This document shows positions 12,636-36,114 of a stretch of 40,870 nucleotides of DNA, piece by piece. The DNA is from a virus (Duplodnaviria; Heunggongvirae; Uroviricota; Caudoviricetes), in IMG/VR virus record IMGVR_UViG_2917413769_000003, positions 1 through 40,870 of that record; one strand, written 5' to 3'. Position 1 is the stretch's first letter. Each line of letters starts with the position of its first letter. The notes beneath the pieces are model-generated. The model was not told the origin of the DNA and did no database searches. It saw only the letters and a list, made by a program, of their open reading frames with translations. The position numbers were made by a program, and so were the translations under genes.

Positions 12636-13583
12636 TCAGATACCGTCCACGTAGGACAGCGTTTCTTTGTACACAGGCTCGATTGCACCCAGCTTGCCGT
12701 AGTAGGTGACAATCTGATACAGACCACGATACTGCACCGGCACGCTCTGCAGCGGCACCAGCGGATAGCGGACGTACTTCTTGTCGTTGGTGTAAGCAAC
12801 CATGCGATCTTTACCGCCGACACCTCGGCCTTTCAGCCACTTAACCGCGCGGATGTTCAGTGGAACACCGTTCTGGTGGTAGCTGATGGTGTTAGTCTGG
12901 AGGTAGGTCAGTAAAGACTGATTACCCGCTGAAGACACGATGATGCTGGACAGCAGAGCAAACTGCTCTGGCGGGATCAGCAAATCGCGCGGCACAACTG
13001 AATAGCCAGAAGCAGCCCAGGCATCCGAAAGCACAGTGTTAATACTGGCGCGGATTTCATCCGGCGTGGACAGCGCCCACGTTTTGGCCGCATTGTTAAC
13101 TGGAATGCTAGTCAGCGTTGCCAGCCCTTTCAGGTTCAGAGAGGGATCACCGATGTAAACTTGCTCGTCGTTATCCATCTGCCATTTGAGCTGCATACCG
13201 TCGTATTTCTGTGTATCGATCGGACGACCAACCTGCTCTGCGGCTTTCAGCTCGATAACAGTCCAGCCTAATTCCATACCCCAGAGGTTCAGCGGATTGC
13301 CGTCTTTACCAATATCGACGTTCACGCCAGCAATGGCGGTAGATACTTTGCCAACCCAGTTTTTGCCATTCGGGTTAGCGCCGGTACCTGCTGCACCAAA
13401 TTTGGTATTAGTCCAGCTGGAGATATCGTCAGCGATGGAAACGTCTTCGCGCAGCTGAATATCGCGCGTCCAGGTGTACCCCACCAGCGGCAGGTTCAGC
13501 GTCTGATCCAGACGCTCCAGCTCGCCGACAAGAAACGCACCAGAGCCGTCTACCGTCGCCTGGTCAAAAGTAATCATTGACAT
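12636..13583 (-). CDS. Major capsid protein (DUF2184-like)
   Basis: 315 aa ORF with good RBS context, positioned after scaffold and decoration-like genes. Confidence 0.7.
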   Translation of the reverse strand: MSMITFDQATVDGSGAFLVGELERLDQTLNLPLVGYTWTRDIQLREDVSIADDISSWTNTKFGAAGTGANPNGKNWVGKVSTAIAGVNVDIGKDGNPLNLWGMELGWTVIELKAAEQVGRPIDTQKYDGMQLKWQMDNDEQVYIGDPSLNLKGLATLTSIPVNNAAKTWALSTPDEIRASINTVLSDAWAASGYSVVPRDLLIPPEQFALLSSIIVSSAGNQSLLTYLQTNTISYHQNGVPLNIRAVKWLKGRGVGGKDRMVAYTNDKKYVRYPLVPLQSVPVQYRGLYQIVTYYGKLGAIEPVYKETLSYVDGI

Positions 13584-20302: not shown

Positions 20303-20803
20303 TCATCTCCTGCGCGTTTCACCAGACCGGGCAAAAACGCGACCGCCGCCGTAAATCCAGCGGGGAAACTGGTAGCACGCCGCTTTCACATCCCCATTTC
20401 TGAGCAGCGAGAACATCGTGGATTTGCGCATATTGCCGCATCCTGATCGGAACGTGACCGATACCGCGGCGCTGAAAGTGTTATCAGACAGTTTTCGCCC
20501 GTTGCCGTAGCGGTTAACGCAGGACTCGGCATCCAGAATATTGGTTTCCCATTCTGCGGCGATCTGCTGGTCGTTCTTTAAGGTGCCTTGCTTAACCCCA
20601 TGAGTATTACCCATGCCGTCAGTCAGCACACCAGCCGGACAGACATAGGGGTCACGACGGCACGACTCAGCATTGCCAATTAACTCCAGACCCCGCTCAT
20701 TCGTCCGAACATGCCCGGCATTGAGCACTATCGCAATAATCGTGGCGACGGAACATACAACACCGGCAACGCCGTTTTTCTTACTCAGTTTCAACTGTGC
20801 CAC
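20303..20803 (-). CDS. SAR endolysin (phage P1 Lyz-like lysozyme)
   Basis: N-terminal Gly/Ala-rich weakly hydrophobic segment (GVAGVVCSVATIIAIVLNAG) then VRTNERGLELIGNAESCRRDPYVCPAGVLTDGMGNTHGV, closely resembling P1 Lyz catalytic region as recalled. Confidence 0.8.
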   Translation of the reverse strand: MAQLKLSKKNGVAGVVCSVATIIAIVLNAGHVRTNERGLELIGNAESCRRDPYVCPAGVLTDGMGNTHGVKQGTLKNDQQIAAEWETNILDAESCVNRYGNGRKLSDNTFSAAVSVTFRSGCGNMRKSTMFSLLRNGDVKAACYQFPRWIYGGGRVFARSGETRRR

Positions 20804-21101
20804 TGGAGATTCTCCGCATCGCCTCCGTTACCACCTCGGCGGCAGCCGGACGATCGGAGTGTGGTTTTTTACCAACATCAGTTAAATAGTTCGCCAGCAG
20901 CTGGGTTCTTTTCCTTTCCTCAGCCATACGCTCACGCTCTTCTTTACGTTTTGCGTAGTAGGTCTTTATCGTAAAGAACGCCGATACGAGGGCGCCGATG
21001 ATAAATACGTAGTCCTGTAAGCTGAGCAAAGAAAACAACCCTAATGCAGCCGACCACCAGTACGGCAGGTCATGTCCATTTGTTGGGTTCATACGTTGCA
21101 T
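20781..21101 (-). CDS. Holin (class II, two TM), possible dual-start holin/antiholin
   Basis: 106 aa; two hydrophobic helices; starts M-Q-R-M; RBS GGAGGTG; overlaps endolysin start. Confidence 0.6.
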   Translation of the reverse strand: MQRMNPTNGHDLPYWWSAALGLFSLLSLQDYVFIIGALVSAFFTIKTYYAKRKEERERMAEERKRTQLLANYLTDVGKKPHSDRPAAAEVVTEAMRRISSGTVETE

Positions 21102-21135: not shown

Positions 21136-21160
21136 TAAAAAGACGCCCGCCGAAGCGGGC
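21136..21160 (-). terminator. Rho-independent terminator between accessory cluster and holin
   Basis: Minus strand GCCCGC-TTCG-GCGGGC followed by GTCTTTTTAC; about 35 nt upstream of holin start. Confidence 0.6.
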
Positions 21161-21175
21161 AAAATGAGGGTTAAC

Positions 21176-21790
21176 TCAGAAACGCCTGAAAGCGTAGGTA
21201 CCAACCCCTTTGCGCCCGAGCTCGCACTCGATTTCGTTGTGCTCCACGCATTCGAAGCCCTGCTCCGCAAACCAGCGCCGCAAGCCCTCGTCCGTGAAGT
21301 ACCAGATATGCTCGTCTTTCTTGTAGTGATGTGATGCCAGAATGTCTTCGGCACCTTTGAAGATCGGGATTGAGAGAAACACGAACTGTCCGGCTTGCTG
21401 AACTGCGCTAACCGGGTCGTCGATGTGCTCCAGGCTATCCCAGAATGTCAGCGCGGGAGCGCCTTCAGCGTAGAGATCAACGAAACATCCGTTATCCTTC
21501 AGCCAGGAGACTCCCGCAGGGTTGACGTCGTAGCCGACCGTTTCCGCTCGCGTGGACACGAATTGTCCGGCCCCGATTCCCACATCGAGTACCAGACCGC
21601 GGTAATGGCGACCCACAAGATCGATACGCGCCTGCGTCAGGGCGTAGCCGGTCTCCGTATCGGCATAAGCCTGATACTTTGCAAAATATTGCGAGTTATA
21701 CGGCCTTGCTGGTGGTACCGGATATCGACCGATCCCCAGCTCAGGCAGAAACACCAGCCCGCGTTCCAGTTCCCGATAAAACGACTTCAT
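21176..21790 (-). CDS. Class I SAM-dependent methyltransferase
   Basis: ORF track 21176..21955; start at Met56 (MKSFYRELERG...) assumed; motif I VLDVGIGAGQF. Confidence 0.6.
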   Translation of the reverse strand: MKSFYRELERGLVFLPELGIGRYPVPPARPYNSQYFAKYQAYADTETGYALTQARIDLVGRHYRGLVLDVGIGAGQFVSTRAETVGYDVNPAGVSWLKDNGCFVDLYAEGAPALTFWDSLEHIDDPVSAVQQAGQFVFLSIPIFKGAEDILASHHYKKDEHIWYFTDEGLRRWFAEQGFECVEHNEIECELGRKGVGTYAFRRF

Positions 21791-22637
21791 GGAGCCAGGC
21801 CTCGAATGTGTTAGTGAAATTGGAGATCCGCTTGTCGCAGTGGTGGTCCCACTCCTCACAGCGGCAGTAGTTGTCAGGGATGGCCCAGCCAACCCGCGAC
21901 AGGTCCATAGCCGGATCGGTAACGATTTCCGGGGCGTTGTGGCCGCCACGCCCACCCGCTACAACGTAGACAGGGGTTTTGTAGGCAATCGCCGCAGGAA
22001 GCGCCCAGCCAACAGGCGTAACCACCACAGCAGCATGCTCAACCAGGCGCATCAGCGATTTGAAGCCGAGCTCACCAGCGTGTAAACGCAGATCAGCGTC
22101 CGGCAGCTCACCGACGGCCCATTCCTCGCCGTCCTGCAAGTCAGCCACGCTGATCACGCAGAAATGCTTGCGCAGGATGTGGGAAGCCTTCAGCAGGTAA
22201 TCGGGGTCCGGATTGCGCGAATCGCTGCGCCATTCAGATCGGACGGTTGCCGGGCGTATGACCGCGATCGGCTTTTCGTGCGTGAACTCCGCAGGGCCGA
22301 AGGAAGGGAGATCCAGCGCTGCTGGCTCCGTGCCGAACTGCTGGCGCATTGCGTCAAATATCGAACCGCGCCGCAGGTGGTCTGGCCCGTAGAAAATACG
22401 CTTTGTCTGGCGCATATCCGGCAGCGGGTGGAATACCGACTGCGTGCGGTGCTCGTTCTTCCGCTGGGTTCTCAGCGTGGTATTGCTGCGCACCGGGCGG
22501 ATGGGTAAATCCTCGTACAGCTCCGGCCAGGGCGTTTTGATAAACGAGCCCGCAGGCAGCTGACGGACGAAAGCACGCTGGTAGATGTTGTCACCCATCC
22601 CCAGCATGCCCTCAATGAAAAGGGGTACATTCAGCAT
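21741..22637 (-). CDS. Glycosyltransferase-like protein (GT-B fold, GT9/heptosyltransferase-like motifs)
   Basis: 298 aa; N-terminal GMGDNIYQRAF resembles GT9 SxGD motif and C-terminal TPVGWALPAAIAYKTPVYVVAGG resembles the GT9 donor-binding region; from memory. Confidence 0.45.
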   Translation of the reverse strand: MLNVPLFIEGMLGMGDNIYQRAFVRQLPAGSFIKTPWPELYEDLPIRPVRSNTTLRTQRKNEHRTQSVFHPLPDMRQTKRIFYGPDHLRRGSIFDAMRQQFGTEPAALDLPSFGPAEFTHEKPIAVIRPATVRSEWRSDSRNPDPDYLLKASHILRKHFCVISVADLQDGEEWAVGELPDADLRLHAGELGFKSLMRLVEHAAVVVTPVGWALPAAIAYKTPVYVVAGGRGGHNAPEIVTDPAMDLSRVGWAIPDNYCRCEEWDHHCDKRISNFTNTFEAWLHEVVLSGTGTRAGVSA

Positions 22638-23182
22638 GTGGCCTCGCGTAGCGCCTCGTCGAGTGACTGACGCCGAAAGCAGTTAAGCGCCGTCTGGCGG
22701 CTGCTGTTGGTGATATTGACTTTGCCGCGAAGCAGCTGCGCGACGCGAGCAAACTCACCGTGCCAGCGCTTCACATTCGCCGCTGTCGGGTTGTCCAGAC
22801 AGGTGTGGTCTCCATGCCAGTGGCTGCCATCTGTGATGGAGCAGTCGAAGCCCAGCAGGATGATGCGCTTTGCACCCAGCCAGTGGGCAAACAGAATCGC
22901 CCTCTGCCCTGAATTGAAGGTGCCAGTGGTATCTGTCGGGAACAGGTTCAGACCATGCCTGGTGTGCGCCCTGCGGTTGCATGTCCAGCGCTCAGGCCCA
23001 TCAGGTAGCGCGGGGATGTTCATATCCCACCAGCGGAGATCGCCCGCGTAGATGTGAGAGCAGCCCGGTACCGCACGCCATGATGAATTAACCGCGATGA
23101 CCGGCAGGCCAGAACGGCATGCTGCGGTACAGTCAGCGACAGTGAGAGAGGGACCAGAAGCGCAGATGATCGCCGCATCCAT
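22631..23182 (-). CDS. Maf/DUF115 (MptE-like) family protein
   Basis: ORF track 22631..23194; motifs IICASGPSL, PVIAVNSS and RIILLGFDCS match DUF115/Maf conserved blocks as recalled. Confidence 0.5.
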   Translation of the reverse strand: MDAAIICASGPSLTVADCTAACRSGLPVIAVNSSWRAVPGCSHIYAGDLRWWDMNIPALPDGPERWTCNRRAHTRHGLNLFPTDTTGTFNSGQRAILFAHWLGAKRIILLGFDCSITDGSHWHGDHTCLDNPTAANVKRWHGEFARVAQLLRGKVNITNSSRQTALNCFRRQSLDEALREATC

Positions 23183-23194
23183 CCCAACCCCCAT

Positions 23195-23508
23195 AATTTG
23201 TTAAAAAACGGCCTGATTTAACATAATGTACGTTATCGGCACCACGCGATCGGCACTCGTCGCTGGATTGCGGCGAAGGGCATGTTTACGCGGATTAAGT
23301 GGCCTGAAACGGACAAAAACGAGTGAATAAATCGTGCATAAAACAGGGTGCAAATTGCATAGCGTTTTTTCGCAGCAAAAGCCCTGTTTTATTAACTTTT
23401 CCCCAGGAAGGAGAAAAGAAAAAGGCCCTCATGCGAGAGCCTCTTAGTGATGAACTGTTTTCAACAGATATCAGGCTAATCGGCTTTTTGGAATTCCACA
23501 ACTATTTT
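23195..23508 (-). promoter_or_regulatory. AT-rich intergenic region, candidate late promoter (PR'-like) / Q-utilisation region
   Basis: 314 bp non-coding, AT-rich, downstream of Q and upstream of late-oriented genes; no convincing -35/-10 pair pinned down. Confidence 0.3.
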
Positions 23509-23850
23509 TTATCTTACCTTGATACCTGAGGCCGTCAGGTGCTTACGGCAGTCCTGAATACCCTCGTTATAACCCGCATCGTAGAAGCTATCGGGCTTTG
23601 CTTTTAACGCAGGAAGAGTGACGCTGGTAGCTTTCCGTTCAGCAGCTACGCCCGCCTGAAAAAGCTCCCACATCAGCTGCACCGCAGGCTCGAAGAACTC
23701 GACATCTTCGCTATACAGCTCGCGCTCCATCCTGAAGCCAAGCTGAGCTTTCATTGACGATCCGATATCACCTTTGATCCGCAAGGAGAGGTCCGGGTAT
23801 TGCTGTTCCATGTAACTTTCAAATCGATTGCGAACACTGATCAGAGCCAT
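23509..23850 (-). CDS. Hypothetical protein downstream of Q
   Basis: 113 aa ORF, no recognisable motifs. Confidence 0.4.
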   Translation of the reverse strand: MALISVRNRFESYMEQQYPDLSLRIKGDIGSSMKAQLGFRMERELYSEDVEFFEPAVQLMWELFQAGVAAERKATSVTLPALKAKPDSFYDAGYNEGIQDCRKHLTASGIKVR

Positions 23851-23881: not shown

Positions 23882-24304
23882 TTATGCCGCTGGGCGGTTT
23901 CTGTGCAAAGTCCTAAGCATCTGAGGCTTTGACTGTACCGACTGATCCATTTCGAGAACCACGTCCAGCATCGCCAGGCAACCGTCGATAAATCCCTCTG
24001 CGGCCTGGAGCCTCTTCAGAACGTGGGTATGCGATACGCCGAGCTTCTCGCCCATCGCCCGTACTGGCATGGCCTGAACGTAATGCCACTCAAGCAGTGT
24101 GCACAGATACGGATCTTTTTTCTTCAGGCAGTTCATAGCGGAGCTGATGATCAGACCGTCGTTGTCGCTGCACTTAAGCCGTCCGGCTTGCGTTGTGGGT
24201 AGCAGATTCTTAAATCCTGCAGCTACAGGGGGAAAGTAAATACTACCGCCTTCACTCGCAGCCCAGCCACCCCATCGATCTAAAACCTGTTGAATATTAC
24301 GCAT
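23882..24304 (-). CDS. Late-gene antitermination protein Q (E. coli QuuD-like)
   Basis: N-terminus MRNIQQVLDRWGGWAAS...VAAGFKNL closely resembles QuuD MRDIQMVLERWGAWAA...IAAGFKGL as recalled; located upstream of lysis cassette. Confidence 0.8.
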   Translation of the reverse strand: MRNIQQVLDRWGGWAASEGGSIYFPPVAAGFKNLLPTTQAGRLKCSDNDGLIISSAMNCLKKKDPYLCTLLEWHYVQAMPVRAMGEKLGVSHTHVLKRLQAAEGFIDGCLAMLDVVLEMDQSVQSKPQMLRTLHRNRPAA

Positions 24305-24435
24305 AGCTCTGACCTCTACGTTTTGCTACGAAAAAATTTTCAGGGAACCGCGTCCGCCTCTCCGTGGGCGTGGATAACGCAGTCCCGATTTGCGTATTGC
24401 ACGTCTCAACATGCAAAAAGTTACTTATTCGGAGT

Positions 24436-24623
24436 GGAACCACCTGCCCCCACCTGGAACCACCTTTTTCTAACCTTTCCCCCAATCGACTTATATATAT
24501 ATATGGGGTTTCTAATAGAAAGGTGGTTCCAGTGGTTCCAGTAGTTCCGCACCGCTTGCCGCAAGGGCTGCGAGGTGGAACCACCTTCGCTTTTAGGTGG
24601 TTCCACGTGGTTCCAGCGGTTCC
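24436..24623. repeat. Iteron array (GGTGGTTCC / GGAACCACC, about 9 copies in both orientations) flanking a (TA)n tract; putative replication origin
   Basis: Copies at about 24436, 24456, 24522, 24532, 24574, 24596, 24607, 24615; TATATATATATAT at 24491..24504; directly 3' of the primase-helicase gene. Confidence 0.5.
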
Positions 24624-31525: not shown

Positions 31526-31717
31526 ATGCGAAGGATTTATATCCGGCTGGTCATCACTCTGGCTATCGCCGCGCTCGTTTACGGCTTCCTGGTTCCTTCC
31601 CTGATCTCGATGAAGGACACCGTGGCTGTGCTGTCTGGTTTCGCGCTGGCGCTGACCGCGCCGCCGTGTCTGTTTGCCATTTTCAAAGGCATCTTTATTA
31701 CTAAGGAAAAGAAATGA
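31526..31717 (+). CDS. Small membrane protein (2 TM), partner of SPFH protein
   Basis: 63 aa, two hydrophobic helices; stop overlaps SPFH start (ATGA). Confidence 0.45.
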   Translation: MRRIYIRLVITLAIAALVYGFLVPSLISMKDTVAVLSGFALALTAPPCLFAIFKGIFITKEKK

Positions 31718-32550
31718 AGAAAATTATCTTTGCTGCCGTCGTCGCCCTGTCGGCGCTGGCTCTGTCTGGTTGCGAACGCGCCACCGTTCCCGCGGGTTAC
31801 GTCGGCGTTAAAGTGGACCTCTACGGTGACGAAAAAGGCGTTCAGCAGTCCGAAGTCGGCGTCGGTAAATATTGGCTGACGTGGAACGAAGAGATTTACC
31901 AGTTCCCGACGTTCAACCAGCTGCACAACTATGATCAGCCATTCACCTTCCAGACCGCCGACTCAATGGATGTGAAAGCCCGGATCGGCGTCGAATATTA
32001 TGTCGACCCCGAAAAGGTGACCAAAATATTCCAGACCTACCGCAAAGGGGTGGACGAAATAACCGAGGTCAACCTGCGCCAAAATATCAGTGATGCGCTG
32101 ATCAACCACTCCGGGAAGATGAATATCAACTCGCTGGCAGCCGGAGGCAAAACGCAACTGCTCGAACAGGTTACGCAGGATCTGAAGTCCAAACTTGACC
32201 CCATCGGCATCAGAATCGTGAAGCTGTCATGGGTAAGCGACCTGGACTACCCGCAGAAAGTGAAAGAATCCATCAACGCGAAAATCGAGGCCACACAGCG
32301 CGCGCTGCTGCGCGAGAACGAGATCGCCCAGTCTAAAGCCGAAGCCCAGAAGGCAATCGAGCAGGCACGCGGCGAAGCAGAATCCACCATGTTGCGCGCC
32401 AAAGCTGAATCTGACGCTATTGCCCTTCGCGGTGAAGCGTTACGCAGTAACCCCGAAGTGCTGCAACTGGAAGCGATTAATAAATGGAATGGCACATTGC
32501 CGCAGTATCTGACCAGCGGCGCAGCAACTCCCTTTATCCCCCTGAAGTAA
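31714..32550 (+). CDS. SPFH/band-7 domain lipoprotein (prohibitin/flotillin-like)
   Basis: 278 aa; lipoprotein signal [20 protein letters not shown]; band-7-like core and C-terminal coiled coil ([22 protein letters not shown]...). Confidence 0.65.
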
Positions 32551-35125: not shown

Positions 35126-35341
35126 ATGTCATTCGAAAAACACGACAGTCCGTTGTATTTCCGGTCTGCGCGGGAGGCTATGCGTCTTGAGCAGGCTGGC
35201 GAGTATGACCGGGCGGCGAAGGTATGGGCCAAAGCAAACCGGGAATCACGCAACCCGGTAAACCAGCAATGGAGCGATAACCGCTCTGATTTCTGCATCA
35301 TGCAGAACATCCGCAGCAAACGTAAAGAGGTGCAACTGTGA
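35126..35341 (+). CDS. Hypothetical small protein
   Basis: 71 aa ORF, stop overlaps next gene start. Confidence 0.4.
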   Translation: MSFEKHDSPLYFRSAREAMRLEQAGEYDRAAKVWAKANRESRNPVNQQWSDNRSDFCIMQNIRSKRKEVQL

Positions 35342-36114
35342 TCCCAGGTGAAATTAACACCCTCATCAGCACTGGTGCGCTCTTTGTATCAAACCACAGC
35401 GGCGGAAAAGACAGTCAGGTGATGTTGATTAAACTCCTTGAGATTGTTCCCACTGCGCAGCTTATCGTTGTGCACGCATCGCTCGGTGTTATTGAGTGGC
35501 CAGGTGCACTGGAACTTGCTGAAACTCAGGCTGCAGGCGCGGGTCTGCCGTTCATCGTGGCTCGAGCCAGCAAGACCTTCTTCGAAATGGTAGAACGTCG
35601 CTTTGAGAATCGTCCAGAAGTTCCCAGTTGGCCATCCTCCAGCACCCGACAATGTACCAGTGACCTGAAGCGCGGCCCCATCCAACGCGAGGTACGCCGG
35701 TATGCAAAAGCCAACGGGTTTAAAACCATCGTTAACTGCCTCGGGCTGCGTGCCCAAGAATCACCTGGCCGAGCTAAGCGCCAGGTGTTCAGCAAAATGG
35801 GGATCAGCAACTCAGTTAATACCTGGTACGAATGGCTCCCAGTTCACGAACTGCTTACCGAGGAAGTATTCGCCACCATTCGAATGACTGGACAAGAGCC
35901 GCACTACGCCTACGCTCTGGGCAATGAGCGATTAAGTTGTGTGTTCTGCATCATGGCCAGCCGTAACGATATGGTTAACGGCGCCCGGCATAACCCACCC
36001 TTGCTGGAGGAATACGCAGACCTAGAGGCTAAGACTGGGTACACCATGCATATGAGCCGGATCCCCATTCGAGTGCTGGCGGCTGACGACGAAAACAAGG
36101 TACATGCAGCATGA
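35338..36114 (+). CDS. PAPS reductase-like PP-loop ATPase (phage PAPS reductase / DndC-like family)
   Basis: 258 aa; GTG start; PP-loop SGGKDS near N-terminus; C-terminal Cys pair (CVFC). Confidence 0.7.
   Translation: MIPGEINTLISTGALFVSNHSGGKDSQVMLIKLLEIVPTAQLIVVHASLGVIEWPGALELAETQAAGAGLPFIVARASKTFFEMVERRFENRPEVPSWPSSSTRQCTSDLKRGPIQREVRRYAKANGFKTIVNCLGLRAQESPGRAKRQVFSKMGISNSVNTWYEWLPVHELLTEEVFATIRMTGQEPHYAYALGNERLSCVFCIMASRNDMVNGARHNPPLLEEYADLEAKTGYTMHMSRIPIRVLAADDENKVHAA

Follow-up and report, generated by a model that had tools for sequence, protein, structure and literature searches.

The window analysed here is the whole 40,870-nucleotide stretch of the IMG/VR virus record IMGVR_UViG_2917413769_000003 (Caudoviricetes). 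It represents a temperate enterobacterial phage, a prophage of the myovirus type whose control region is lambdoid. Between the antiterminator gene Q and the holin gene, its minus strand carries three co-oriented genes, designated gpA, gpB and gpC, which constitute one self-contained, horizontally mobile enzyme cassette. An earlier note, made from the sequence alone, had placed a three-gene cluster at this junction; the minus-strand open reading frames (ORFs) were found there, together with all of the motifs quoted for them (IICASGPSL, VIAVNSS and IILLGFDCS in gpA; VLDVGIGAGQF in gpC). The first gene of the transcript, gpA (22631..23194), is predicted to encode a minimal Maf-like/GT42-sialyltransferase-like glycosyltransferase. 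Its ORF comprises 187 amino acids and the probable product 183, with the second ATG, at 23182, as the likely true start, which is favoured because most homologues have 183 amino acids. The second gene, gpB (21741..22637; 298 amino acids), overlaps the gpA stop by 7 nucleotides and is predicted to encode a GT-B glycosyltransferase resembling the TibC catalytic domain and GT9 enzymes. The third, gpC (21176..21790; 204 amino acids), is a putative class I S-adenosylmethionine (SAM)-dependent methyltransferase gene of the O- or small-molecule type; the ORF extends from 21176 to 21955 (259 amino acids) and translation probably begins at the ATG at 21790 (MKSFYREL), so that gpC shares 50 nucleotides with the 3' end of gpB, an overlap also seen in phages D3 and PAJU2. 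Each gene belongs to a PHROG family of its own (phrog_4603, 4e-49, for gpA; 1e-113 for gpB; phrog_6564, E 5e-84, for gpC), and at a cut-off of E <= 0.001 the homologue search listed at least 874 relatives of gpB and at least 199 of gpA, so that the trio does not consist of chance ORFs. The guanine-plus-cytosine content of the trio is 59-62%, against 50-53% in the flanking DNA.

Comparison with the isolated phage vB_EcoM-606R2 revealed that the cassette is accessory. This close relative shares Q, the late leader and the Rz-TerS-TerL backbone with the window, but lacks the trio, and its leader runs straight into its own holin gene. The late-operon leader common to both phages (23195..23565, minus strand; 85% identity by blastn) marks the boundary precisely: blastn homology ends at 23195, one base before the gpA ORF, and the cassette begins exactly where the shared leader ends. 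The absence of the cassette from this genome fits the proposal that lysis and morphogenesis do not depend on any of the three genes, and the trio is not a core feature of this lineage.

The transcription order on the minus strand is a primase-like gene, Q (23882..24304; Phage_antitermQ, E 3.8e-41), an ORF of 113 amino acids, a leader of about 310 nucleotides, gpA-gpB-gpC and the holin gene (20781..21101; phrog_1350, E 3.6e-32), so that profile matches bear out both flanking genes named in the earlier note. Immediately after the cassette comes the holin gene, which opens the lysis genes; Q is the upstream limit of the late operon. A terminator scan found a tR'-like intrinsic terminator within the leader (23420..23445, minus strand; 11-bp stem and T-run). 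Neither this leader with its terminator nor the 113-amino-acid ORF figures in the earlier note. The tR'-like terminator is kept with vB_EcoM-606R2, and the late promoter and Q-loading site are therefore predicted to lie just upstream, at approximately 23450-23540. Between this terminator and gpA, no promoter-like site was found on the coding strand. A second intrinsic terminator (21136..21161, minus strand; GCCCGC-TTCG-GCGGGC and T-run) lies after the gpC stop codon and ahead of the ribosome-binding site of the holin gene, GGAGG, which precedes the holin ATG at 21101. The strong terminator described at this place is a real hairpin, but it occurs in only 16 of 87 loci and is thus a trait of the lineage and not a feature of the cassette; for the same reason, the moron model of a gene with its own promoter and terminator was rejected.

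Since the cassette is located behind Q and the tR'-like terminator, it should be silent in the lysogen. This position bears on one possible function, remodelling of host envelope glycans, in which lipopolysaccharide (LPS) inner core, O-antigen or capsule precursors would be modified at the cytoplasmic face, for instance by adding or capping heptose or 3-deoxy-D-manno-oct-2-ulosonic acid (Kdo). The benefit would be a block to superinfection, or progeny kept from adsorbing to cell debris. Such a role is unlikely in our judgement: in known cases, serotype conversion usually relies on enzymes that the prophage expresses, LPS synthesised only during the final minutes ahead of lysis could hardly change the cell surface, and in many phages the cassette is embedded in the head operon. 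In addition, Pfam detected no membrane-protein domain in the trio, although no dedicated transmembrane prediction was made.

The gpA product matched PF01973 (MptE-like/DUF115/Maf) with 32.1 bits (E 1.2e-7), just under the gathering threshold of 34.6 bits, over its C-terminal 35 residues only; most of its homologues carry a precomputed PF01973 match. Structure comparison gave a clearer assignment, as the best match of the high-confidence gpA model was Maf, the flagellin O-glycosyltransferase, followed by the archaeal pyrophosphokinase MptE (score 11.4), Campylobacter Cst-I (11.0; 20% identity) and then mammalian sialyltransferases. The predicted Maf-like nature of gpA was thus upheld. The comparison revealed a sialyltransferase-like Rossmann core as in the central domain of Maf, and in the alignment gpA covers nothing but the core of the Maf chain of 632 residues and has no counterpart of the N- and C-terminal accessory domains. 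It is thus a 'mini-Maf', reduced to the catalytic core. An alignment that took in P1 PmgO and PmgP and the homologues of D3, 'Tetraselmis virus S20' and Caulobacter CcrSC showed that residues of catalytic type, in the GPS, NSG and GxD motifs and in one histidine, are invariant across identities of 26-47%. The histidine and the GxD motif, as sequence features, are compatible with a donor of the cytidine monophosphate (CMP)-activated (non)ulosonic acid type. The D3 homologue aligns in a single frame from 5849 (L004 5849-6409, orf6.5/orf7); because the gpA homology continues in frame from that position, D3 orf7 as annotated, with its start at 5951, is too short and lacks the N-terminal part of the protein, and orf6.5 is unlikely to be a genuine gene. 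D3 orf11 had also been considered as the gpA homologue and was rejected in favour of orf7.

The gpB product had no Pfam or NCBIfam match, and Glyco_transf_9 (PF01075) matched one of 49 family members (E 0.24). A profile search against solved structures gave only WaaF (E 0.95); hhalign was unsuccessful against WaaC and gave E 1.2e-3 and 19% probability against WaaF. Membership of GT9 at the sequence level was consequently rejected, and gpB was placed by structure comparison only, which showed a two-lobe GT-B fold closest to heptosyltransferases, with TibC, WaaF and WaaC as the top matches. An independent ranking with Foldseek put TibC first, at 2e-9 compared to 2e-6 for WaaF, a difference of about three orders of magnitude. 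The description of gpB as GT9-like therefore stands for the fold, but not for Pfam GT9 membership. Searches by structure thus found transferase folds in the cassette, and the single best structural match of each of the two transferases is a cytoplasmic protein O-glycosyltransferase, which makes the link to such enzymes firmer than it could be from the sequence alone.

Conserved residues of gpB were also compared with TibC, in which residues 1-97 form an N-terminal beta-barrel, Asp-110 is catalytic and Thr-226, Lys-230, Arg-286 and Trp-305 bind the sugar (PMC4358343). Aspartate D16, within the motif GxGD, is invariant, and an invariant C-terminal CxCx4HxC motif (C258, C260, H265 and C267), located in a C-lobe loop, recalls the iron finger of TibC, a four-cysteine insertion in the C-lobe. 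Subtracting 94 from the TibC numbering brings Asp-110 to D16 and Trp-305 to W211, a family consensus residue that is not among the listed invariant ones; this putative correspondence is numerical and not a superposition, and by the same offset comparison, which is not a structural alignment, no clear equivalents of Lys-230 or Arg-286 were seen. The length of TibC minus its N-terminal barrel is close to that of gpB. The barrel itself was not found in gpB, where the invariant aspartate is residue 16 and the model begins with the catalytic domain. Autotransporter heptosyltransferases of the TibC kind are further characterised by ADP-heptose as donor, a serine of a protein as acceptor and assembly into a dodecameric ring.

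The gpC product was recognised by Methyltransf_23 above the cutoff of 27 bits, both as the 204-amino-acid product (E 1.2e-9, 38.5 bits) and as the full 259-amino-acid ORF (E 2.4e-9, 37.6 bits), and the same model matched 11 of 11 diverse homologues. Together with the SAM-binding DVGIGxG motif, in which D69, G71, G73 and G75 are invariant, these matches agree with the predicted class I SAM methyltransferase. Among solved structures the nearest relative by sequence was UbiG (E about 0.005). Searches for DNA-methyltransferase families (N6/N4 and C5) gave no match, gpC being recognised only by the generic models Methyltransf_23, Methyltransf_25 and Methyltransf_11, and it is predicted not to be a DNA methyltransferase.

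This result is relevant to hypermodification of virion DNA, in which sugars would be placed on phage bases, the methyltransferase would finish the adduct and the genome would be protected from restriction. Phage GT-B enzymes are reported (bioRxiv 10.1101/2023.12.21.572611) to place Kdo or heptose on 5-hydroxymethylcytosine (5hmC) in DNA, and DNA, as a target common to all phages, fits the portability of the cassette. Nevertheless, we consider this function highly improbable. The 5hmC systems need a C5-methyltransferase and a TET-type oxidase to provide the hydroxyl acceptor, and neither is present in the cassette; nor was a Pfam match to them obtained in ten large ORFs of the early and integration region (27-40 kb) or in eight proteins from Q to Rz, a scan limited to these proteins and not extended to small ORFs, structural genes or the gene resembling a primase. 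Moreover, gpC is a UbiG-like Methyltransf_23 protein, the best structural matches of the transferases are protein glycosyltransferases and not the T4 beta-glucosyltransferase, and the cassette is late and occurs in head operons, not with replication genes.

Conservation of the trio was assessed by tblastn: of 89 loci, 88 have the genes in the order A-B-C, the exception being a cyanophage without detectable gpA. A scan of IMG/VR confirmed the trio in at least 588 contigs, and a nucleotide search of complete Escherichia coli genomes found matches to part of the query in 19 of 5426, seven of which cover most of the trio. Natural A-B fusion proteins of 430-504 amino acids exist, indicating that gpA and gpB act together. 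Identity between loci is uneven among the three genes (94%, 96% and 73% in locus L014), which suggests recombination within the cassette.

Genomic context analyses revealed that the Q-holin junction, considered in the earlier note a classic cargo site, does hold the cassette in the window but is only one of several sites, among them a capsid-to-connector slot and a position after the lysis genes. Across the hundreds of phages that carry it, the trio usually adjoins genes for the capsid or for lysis. In enterobacterial lambdoid prophages, the cassette lies between varied antiterminators and varied holins, or after Rz (as also in L102). In HK97-style siphophages of Pseudomonas, Cellvibrio and metagenomes it immediately follows the major capsid gene and precedes the head-tail adaptor and head-closure genes. 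This slot is used in PAJU2, Psp6, a Cellvibrio prophage (L091) and four metagenomic phages (L092, L101, L103 and L104), while D3 has the cassette split within the same capsid-connector module; in L093 the contig ends there and only the connector side is visible. The capsid arrangements beside the cassette are of three kinds: separate HK97-type (PF05065), protease-fused and Gp13-like. In Enterobacter phage Mulvp2, the trio is found between the capsid and tail-tube genes, and in a T4-like cyanophage the B and C genes follow the neck gene gp14. The cassette is thus a widespread unit of late or structural modules and not specifically cargo of the junction between Q and the holin gene, and its several insertion sites argue against lysogenic conversion of the stx type and for a virion-linked role. 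With this main correction, the cautious interpretation of the earlier note stands.

Two further and much larger putative glycosylation islands were observed in structural modules. That of 'Tetraselmis viridis virus S20' (L099 5561-11830) occupies a capsid-to-head-closure slot and contains two mini-Mafs, two further annotated glycosyltransferases, a methyltransferase and several unannotated ORFs; that of a Caulobacter phage CcrSC (L100 5004-9490) follows the tail genes and contains one mini-Maf, a methyltransferase, several unannotated ORFs and no annotated glycosyltransferase. Together these islands suggest a whole class of phage structural-module glycosylation loci. As regards existing annotation, the depositors of PAJU2 label the gpA homologue (ORF010, L096 7780-8349, AP009624.1) 'structural protein', a label given among ORF001-ORF017 otherwise only to the capsid (ORF003) and the major tail protein (ORF015). 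Should an analysis of virion proteins underlie this label, the mini-Maf may accompany the particle. The annotators of P7 name the P1/P7 homologues 'head morphogenesis'.

The same positions bear on a target outside the virion. The substrate could be a host cytoplasmic protein, in the manner of EarP acting on elongation factor P, a defence or translation factor, or a non-structural late protein of the phage; alternatively, the enzymes could consume or convert nucleotide sugars. We judge this rather unlikely. The Maf and sialyltransferase matches of gpA, with its conserved histidine and GxD motif, speak for a glycosyltransferase rather than a kinase. A non-virion target would not account for the recurrent position behind the capsid gene, and gene neighbourhoods yielded no candidate target.

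Taken together, the protein O-glycosyltransferase folds, the A-B fusions, the late-gene setting, the recurrent capsid-adjacent slot and the lack of sugar-nucleotide genes point to cytoplasmic O-glycosylation and O-methyl capping of virion proteins, probably of the capsid, a function that we put forward tentatively and short of calling it probable. The data establish how the genes are arranged, which folds they encode, that the cassette is conserved yet accessory, and where it lies in genomes; acceptor, donors, order of reactions and benefit to the phage are inferred. In the proposed scheme, the cassette would be transcribed with the phage late genes, and gpA and gpB would cooperate in the cytoplasm of the infected cell. 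There they would build a short glycan on serine or threonine residues of a protein that the phage makes late; this acceptor would most likely belong to the virion and is probably the major capsid protein. The glycan would then be capped by gpC with an O-methyl group from SAM, the net effect being an enzymatic sugar 'decoration' of the particle. The donors must be common host metabolites, because there are no sugar-nucleotide synthesis genes and yet the hosts span Enterobacterales, Pseudomonas and Cellvibrio. Plausible candidates, in keeping with the host range as well as with the enzyme families, are adenosine diphosphate (ADP)-heptose, which would serve the TibC/GT9-like gpB, and CMP-Kdo, which would serve gpA as an enzyme of the CMP-sugar type.

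Several observations weigh against modification of virion proteins. The carriers are myo-, sipho- and jumbo phages with sequence-unrelated structural proteins, and unless acceptor specificity is loose, such mobility fits a universal target, whether a host molecule or DNA, at least as well. Lambdoid prophages carry the cassette beside lysis genes and not beside head genes. The flanking domains of Maf and the beta-barrel of TibC bind the acceptor in the reference enzymes, and gpA and gpB are without them. The GT9 donor-binding motifs are not kept in gpB, in which 'DSG..H' is replaced by 'PVGW..P' and 'KRWP' by 'SRNP', so that its donor is uncertain and ADP-heptose unproven. To our knowledge, no Maf-type Kdo transferase is known. 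Furthermore, no experiment could be found behind the labels 'structural protein' and 'head morphogenesis', and virion modification in the carrier phages is something that we infer.

Other features of the window were noted apart from the cassette. Downstream of the holin gene, the minus strand continues with the genes for lysozyme (PF00959, E 4e-25), Rz, TerS, TerL, portal and head proteins, with the major capsid protein at 12636-13583, and then sheath and tape-measure tail proteins; the plus strand carries the S24 repressor and the replication module, and the integrase gene is on the minus strand near the end of the window. The 113-amino-acid ORF between Q and the late leader (23509-23850, minus strand) matches phrog_37465, phrog_15831 (labelled 'head closure') and phrog_343, and is mostly an insertion (23566-23846) relative to vB_EcoM-606R2. 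At 24435-24623, in the 3' end of the primase-like gene and in the stretch upstream of Q, there are clusters of 9-10 bp units in both orientations, TGGAACCAC and its complement GTGGTTCCA, which resemble iterons or protein-binding sites and possibly mark an origin. The early replication module encodes a DUF2800 nuclease, an Enc34-type single-stranded DNA-binding protein, a family A DNA polymerase and an SNF2 helicase, and also an SPFH/Band-7 protein (31714-32550, plus strand) and a protein like 3'-phosphoadenosine-5'-phosphosulfate (PAPS) reductase (35338-36114, plus strand), the last two being unusual cargo for a lambdoid-controlled myovirus.

Whatever the target, two protein groups emerge from the analysis: the mini-Maf class is defined, its best-known member, P1 PmgO, having been unexplained since 2004, and gpB represents a family of at least 874 proteins with no Pfam model and yet a clear fold. 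If virions are glycosylated by the cassette, the process would not be an oddity of mycobacteriophages but would be widespread in phages of Enterobacterales and Pseudomonas, including those of the D3 type and possibly, for the mini-Maf only, of the P1 type. A more specific and doubtful extension is that many Gram-negative phages decorate their capsids enzymatically and not by means of decoration proteins, with the portable trio building a methyl-capped, core-like Kdo/heptose glycan on virion proteins from CMP-Kdo and ADP-heptose, the precursors of the LPS inner core of the host. Were this true, no virion glycosylation system would have been described before in Gram-negative phages, and a Maf-type Kdo transferase, as well as a protein heptosyltransferase acting elsewhere than on autotransporters, would be known for the first time. 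Virion glycosylation by the cassette, in whatever form, would matter for the stability of phages, for how antibodies and host lectins recognise them and for the pharmacokinetics of phage therapy, and it would offer a compact three-gene glyco-engineering system for the E. coli cytoplasm based on endogenous nucleotide sugars.

The searchable full-text literature yielded no functional study of the cassette, and in that literature its description as undescribed holds; one paper, PMC10449497, lists the D3-type homologues as 'GT9 + SAM methyltransferase' and speculates on DNA or O-antigen modification. Database labels already on the pieces are 'alpha-2,3-sialyltransferase', 'GT9' and 'methyltransferase'. 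The closest functional precedent is provided by cassettes of mycobacteriophages, which combine phage glycosyltransferases with an O-methyltransferase. In cluster O, an O-methyltransferase and three glycosyltransferases are reported to modify capsid and tail-tube proteins and to be dispensable for growth (Freeman et al. 2023, as cited in PMC11600133), and virion glycosylation of mycobacteriophages is also covered in PMC12691614. The likeness considered here is one of function; the host there is actinobacterial, and virion glycosylation has been demonstrated in that system, whereas here it is proposed.

Among homologous systems, the operon pmgO-pmgP-ppp-pmgQ of P1 (L094 4923-7481; hdmB-hdmD in P7) is late and C1-controlled, and its PmgO is 37% identical to gpA. 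Both PmgO and PmgP are mini-Mafs with weak PF01973 matches; PmgP had been considered as a gpC-like methyltransferase, which was rejected, as it is the second mini-Maf. In this operon the mini-Mafs stand beside a serine/threonine phosphatase gene (ppp) and a gene labelled glycosyltransferase by PHROG, and there is no gpB or gpC homologue. The pmg names mean only 'putative morphogenetic function', and these genes may form a related glycosylation module. With the Maf flagellin glycosyltransferases and the GT42 enzymes Cst-I/II, gpA shares the fold of the catalytic core; however, Maf exceeds 600 amino acids and gpA has about 183, it lacks the flanking domains that bind flagellin and, unlike in those systems, no nonulosonic-acid synthesis genes accompany it. 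Its donor probably differs from that of Maf, and CMP-Kdo is a guess. The fold of gpB is like that of the LPS heptosyltransferases WaaC and WaaF of GT9, but gpB has neither a Pfam match nor the 'DSG..H' and 'KRWP' motifs. Finally, in comparison with the bacterial autotransporter heptosyltransferases (BAHT) TibC and AAH (PDB 4rap, 4rb4), gpB resembles the TibC catalytic domain in fold at about 14% sequence identity, carries a motif of three cysteines and one histidine where theirs has four cysteines, and has no N-terminal beta-barrel; it is, moreover, a phage product that always comes together with a mini-Maf and a methyltransferase.

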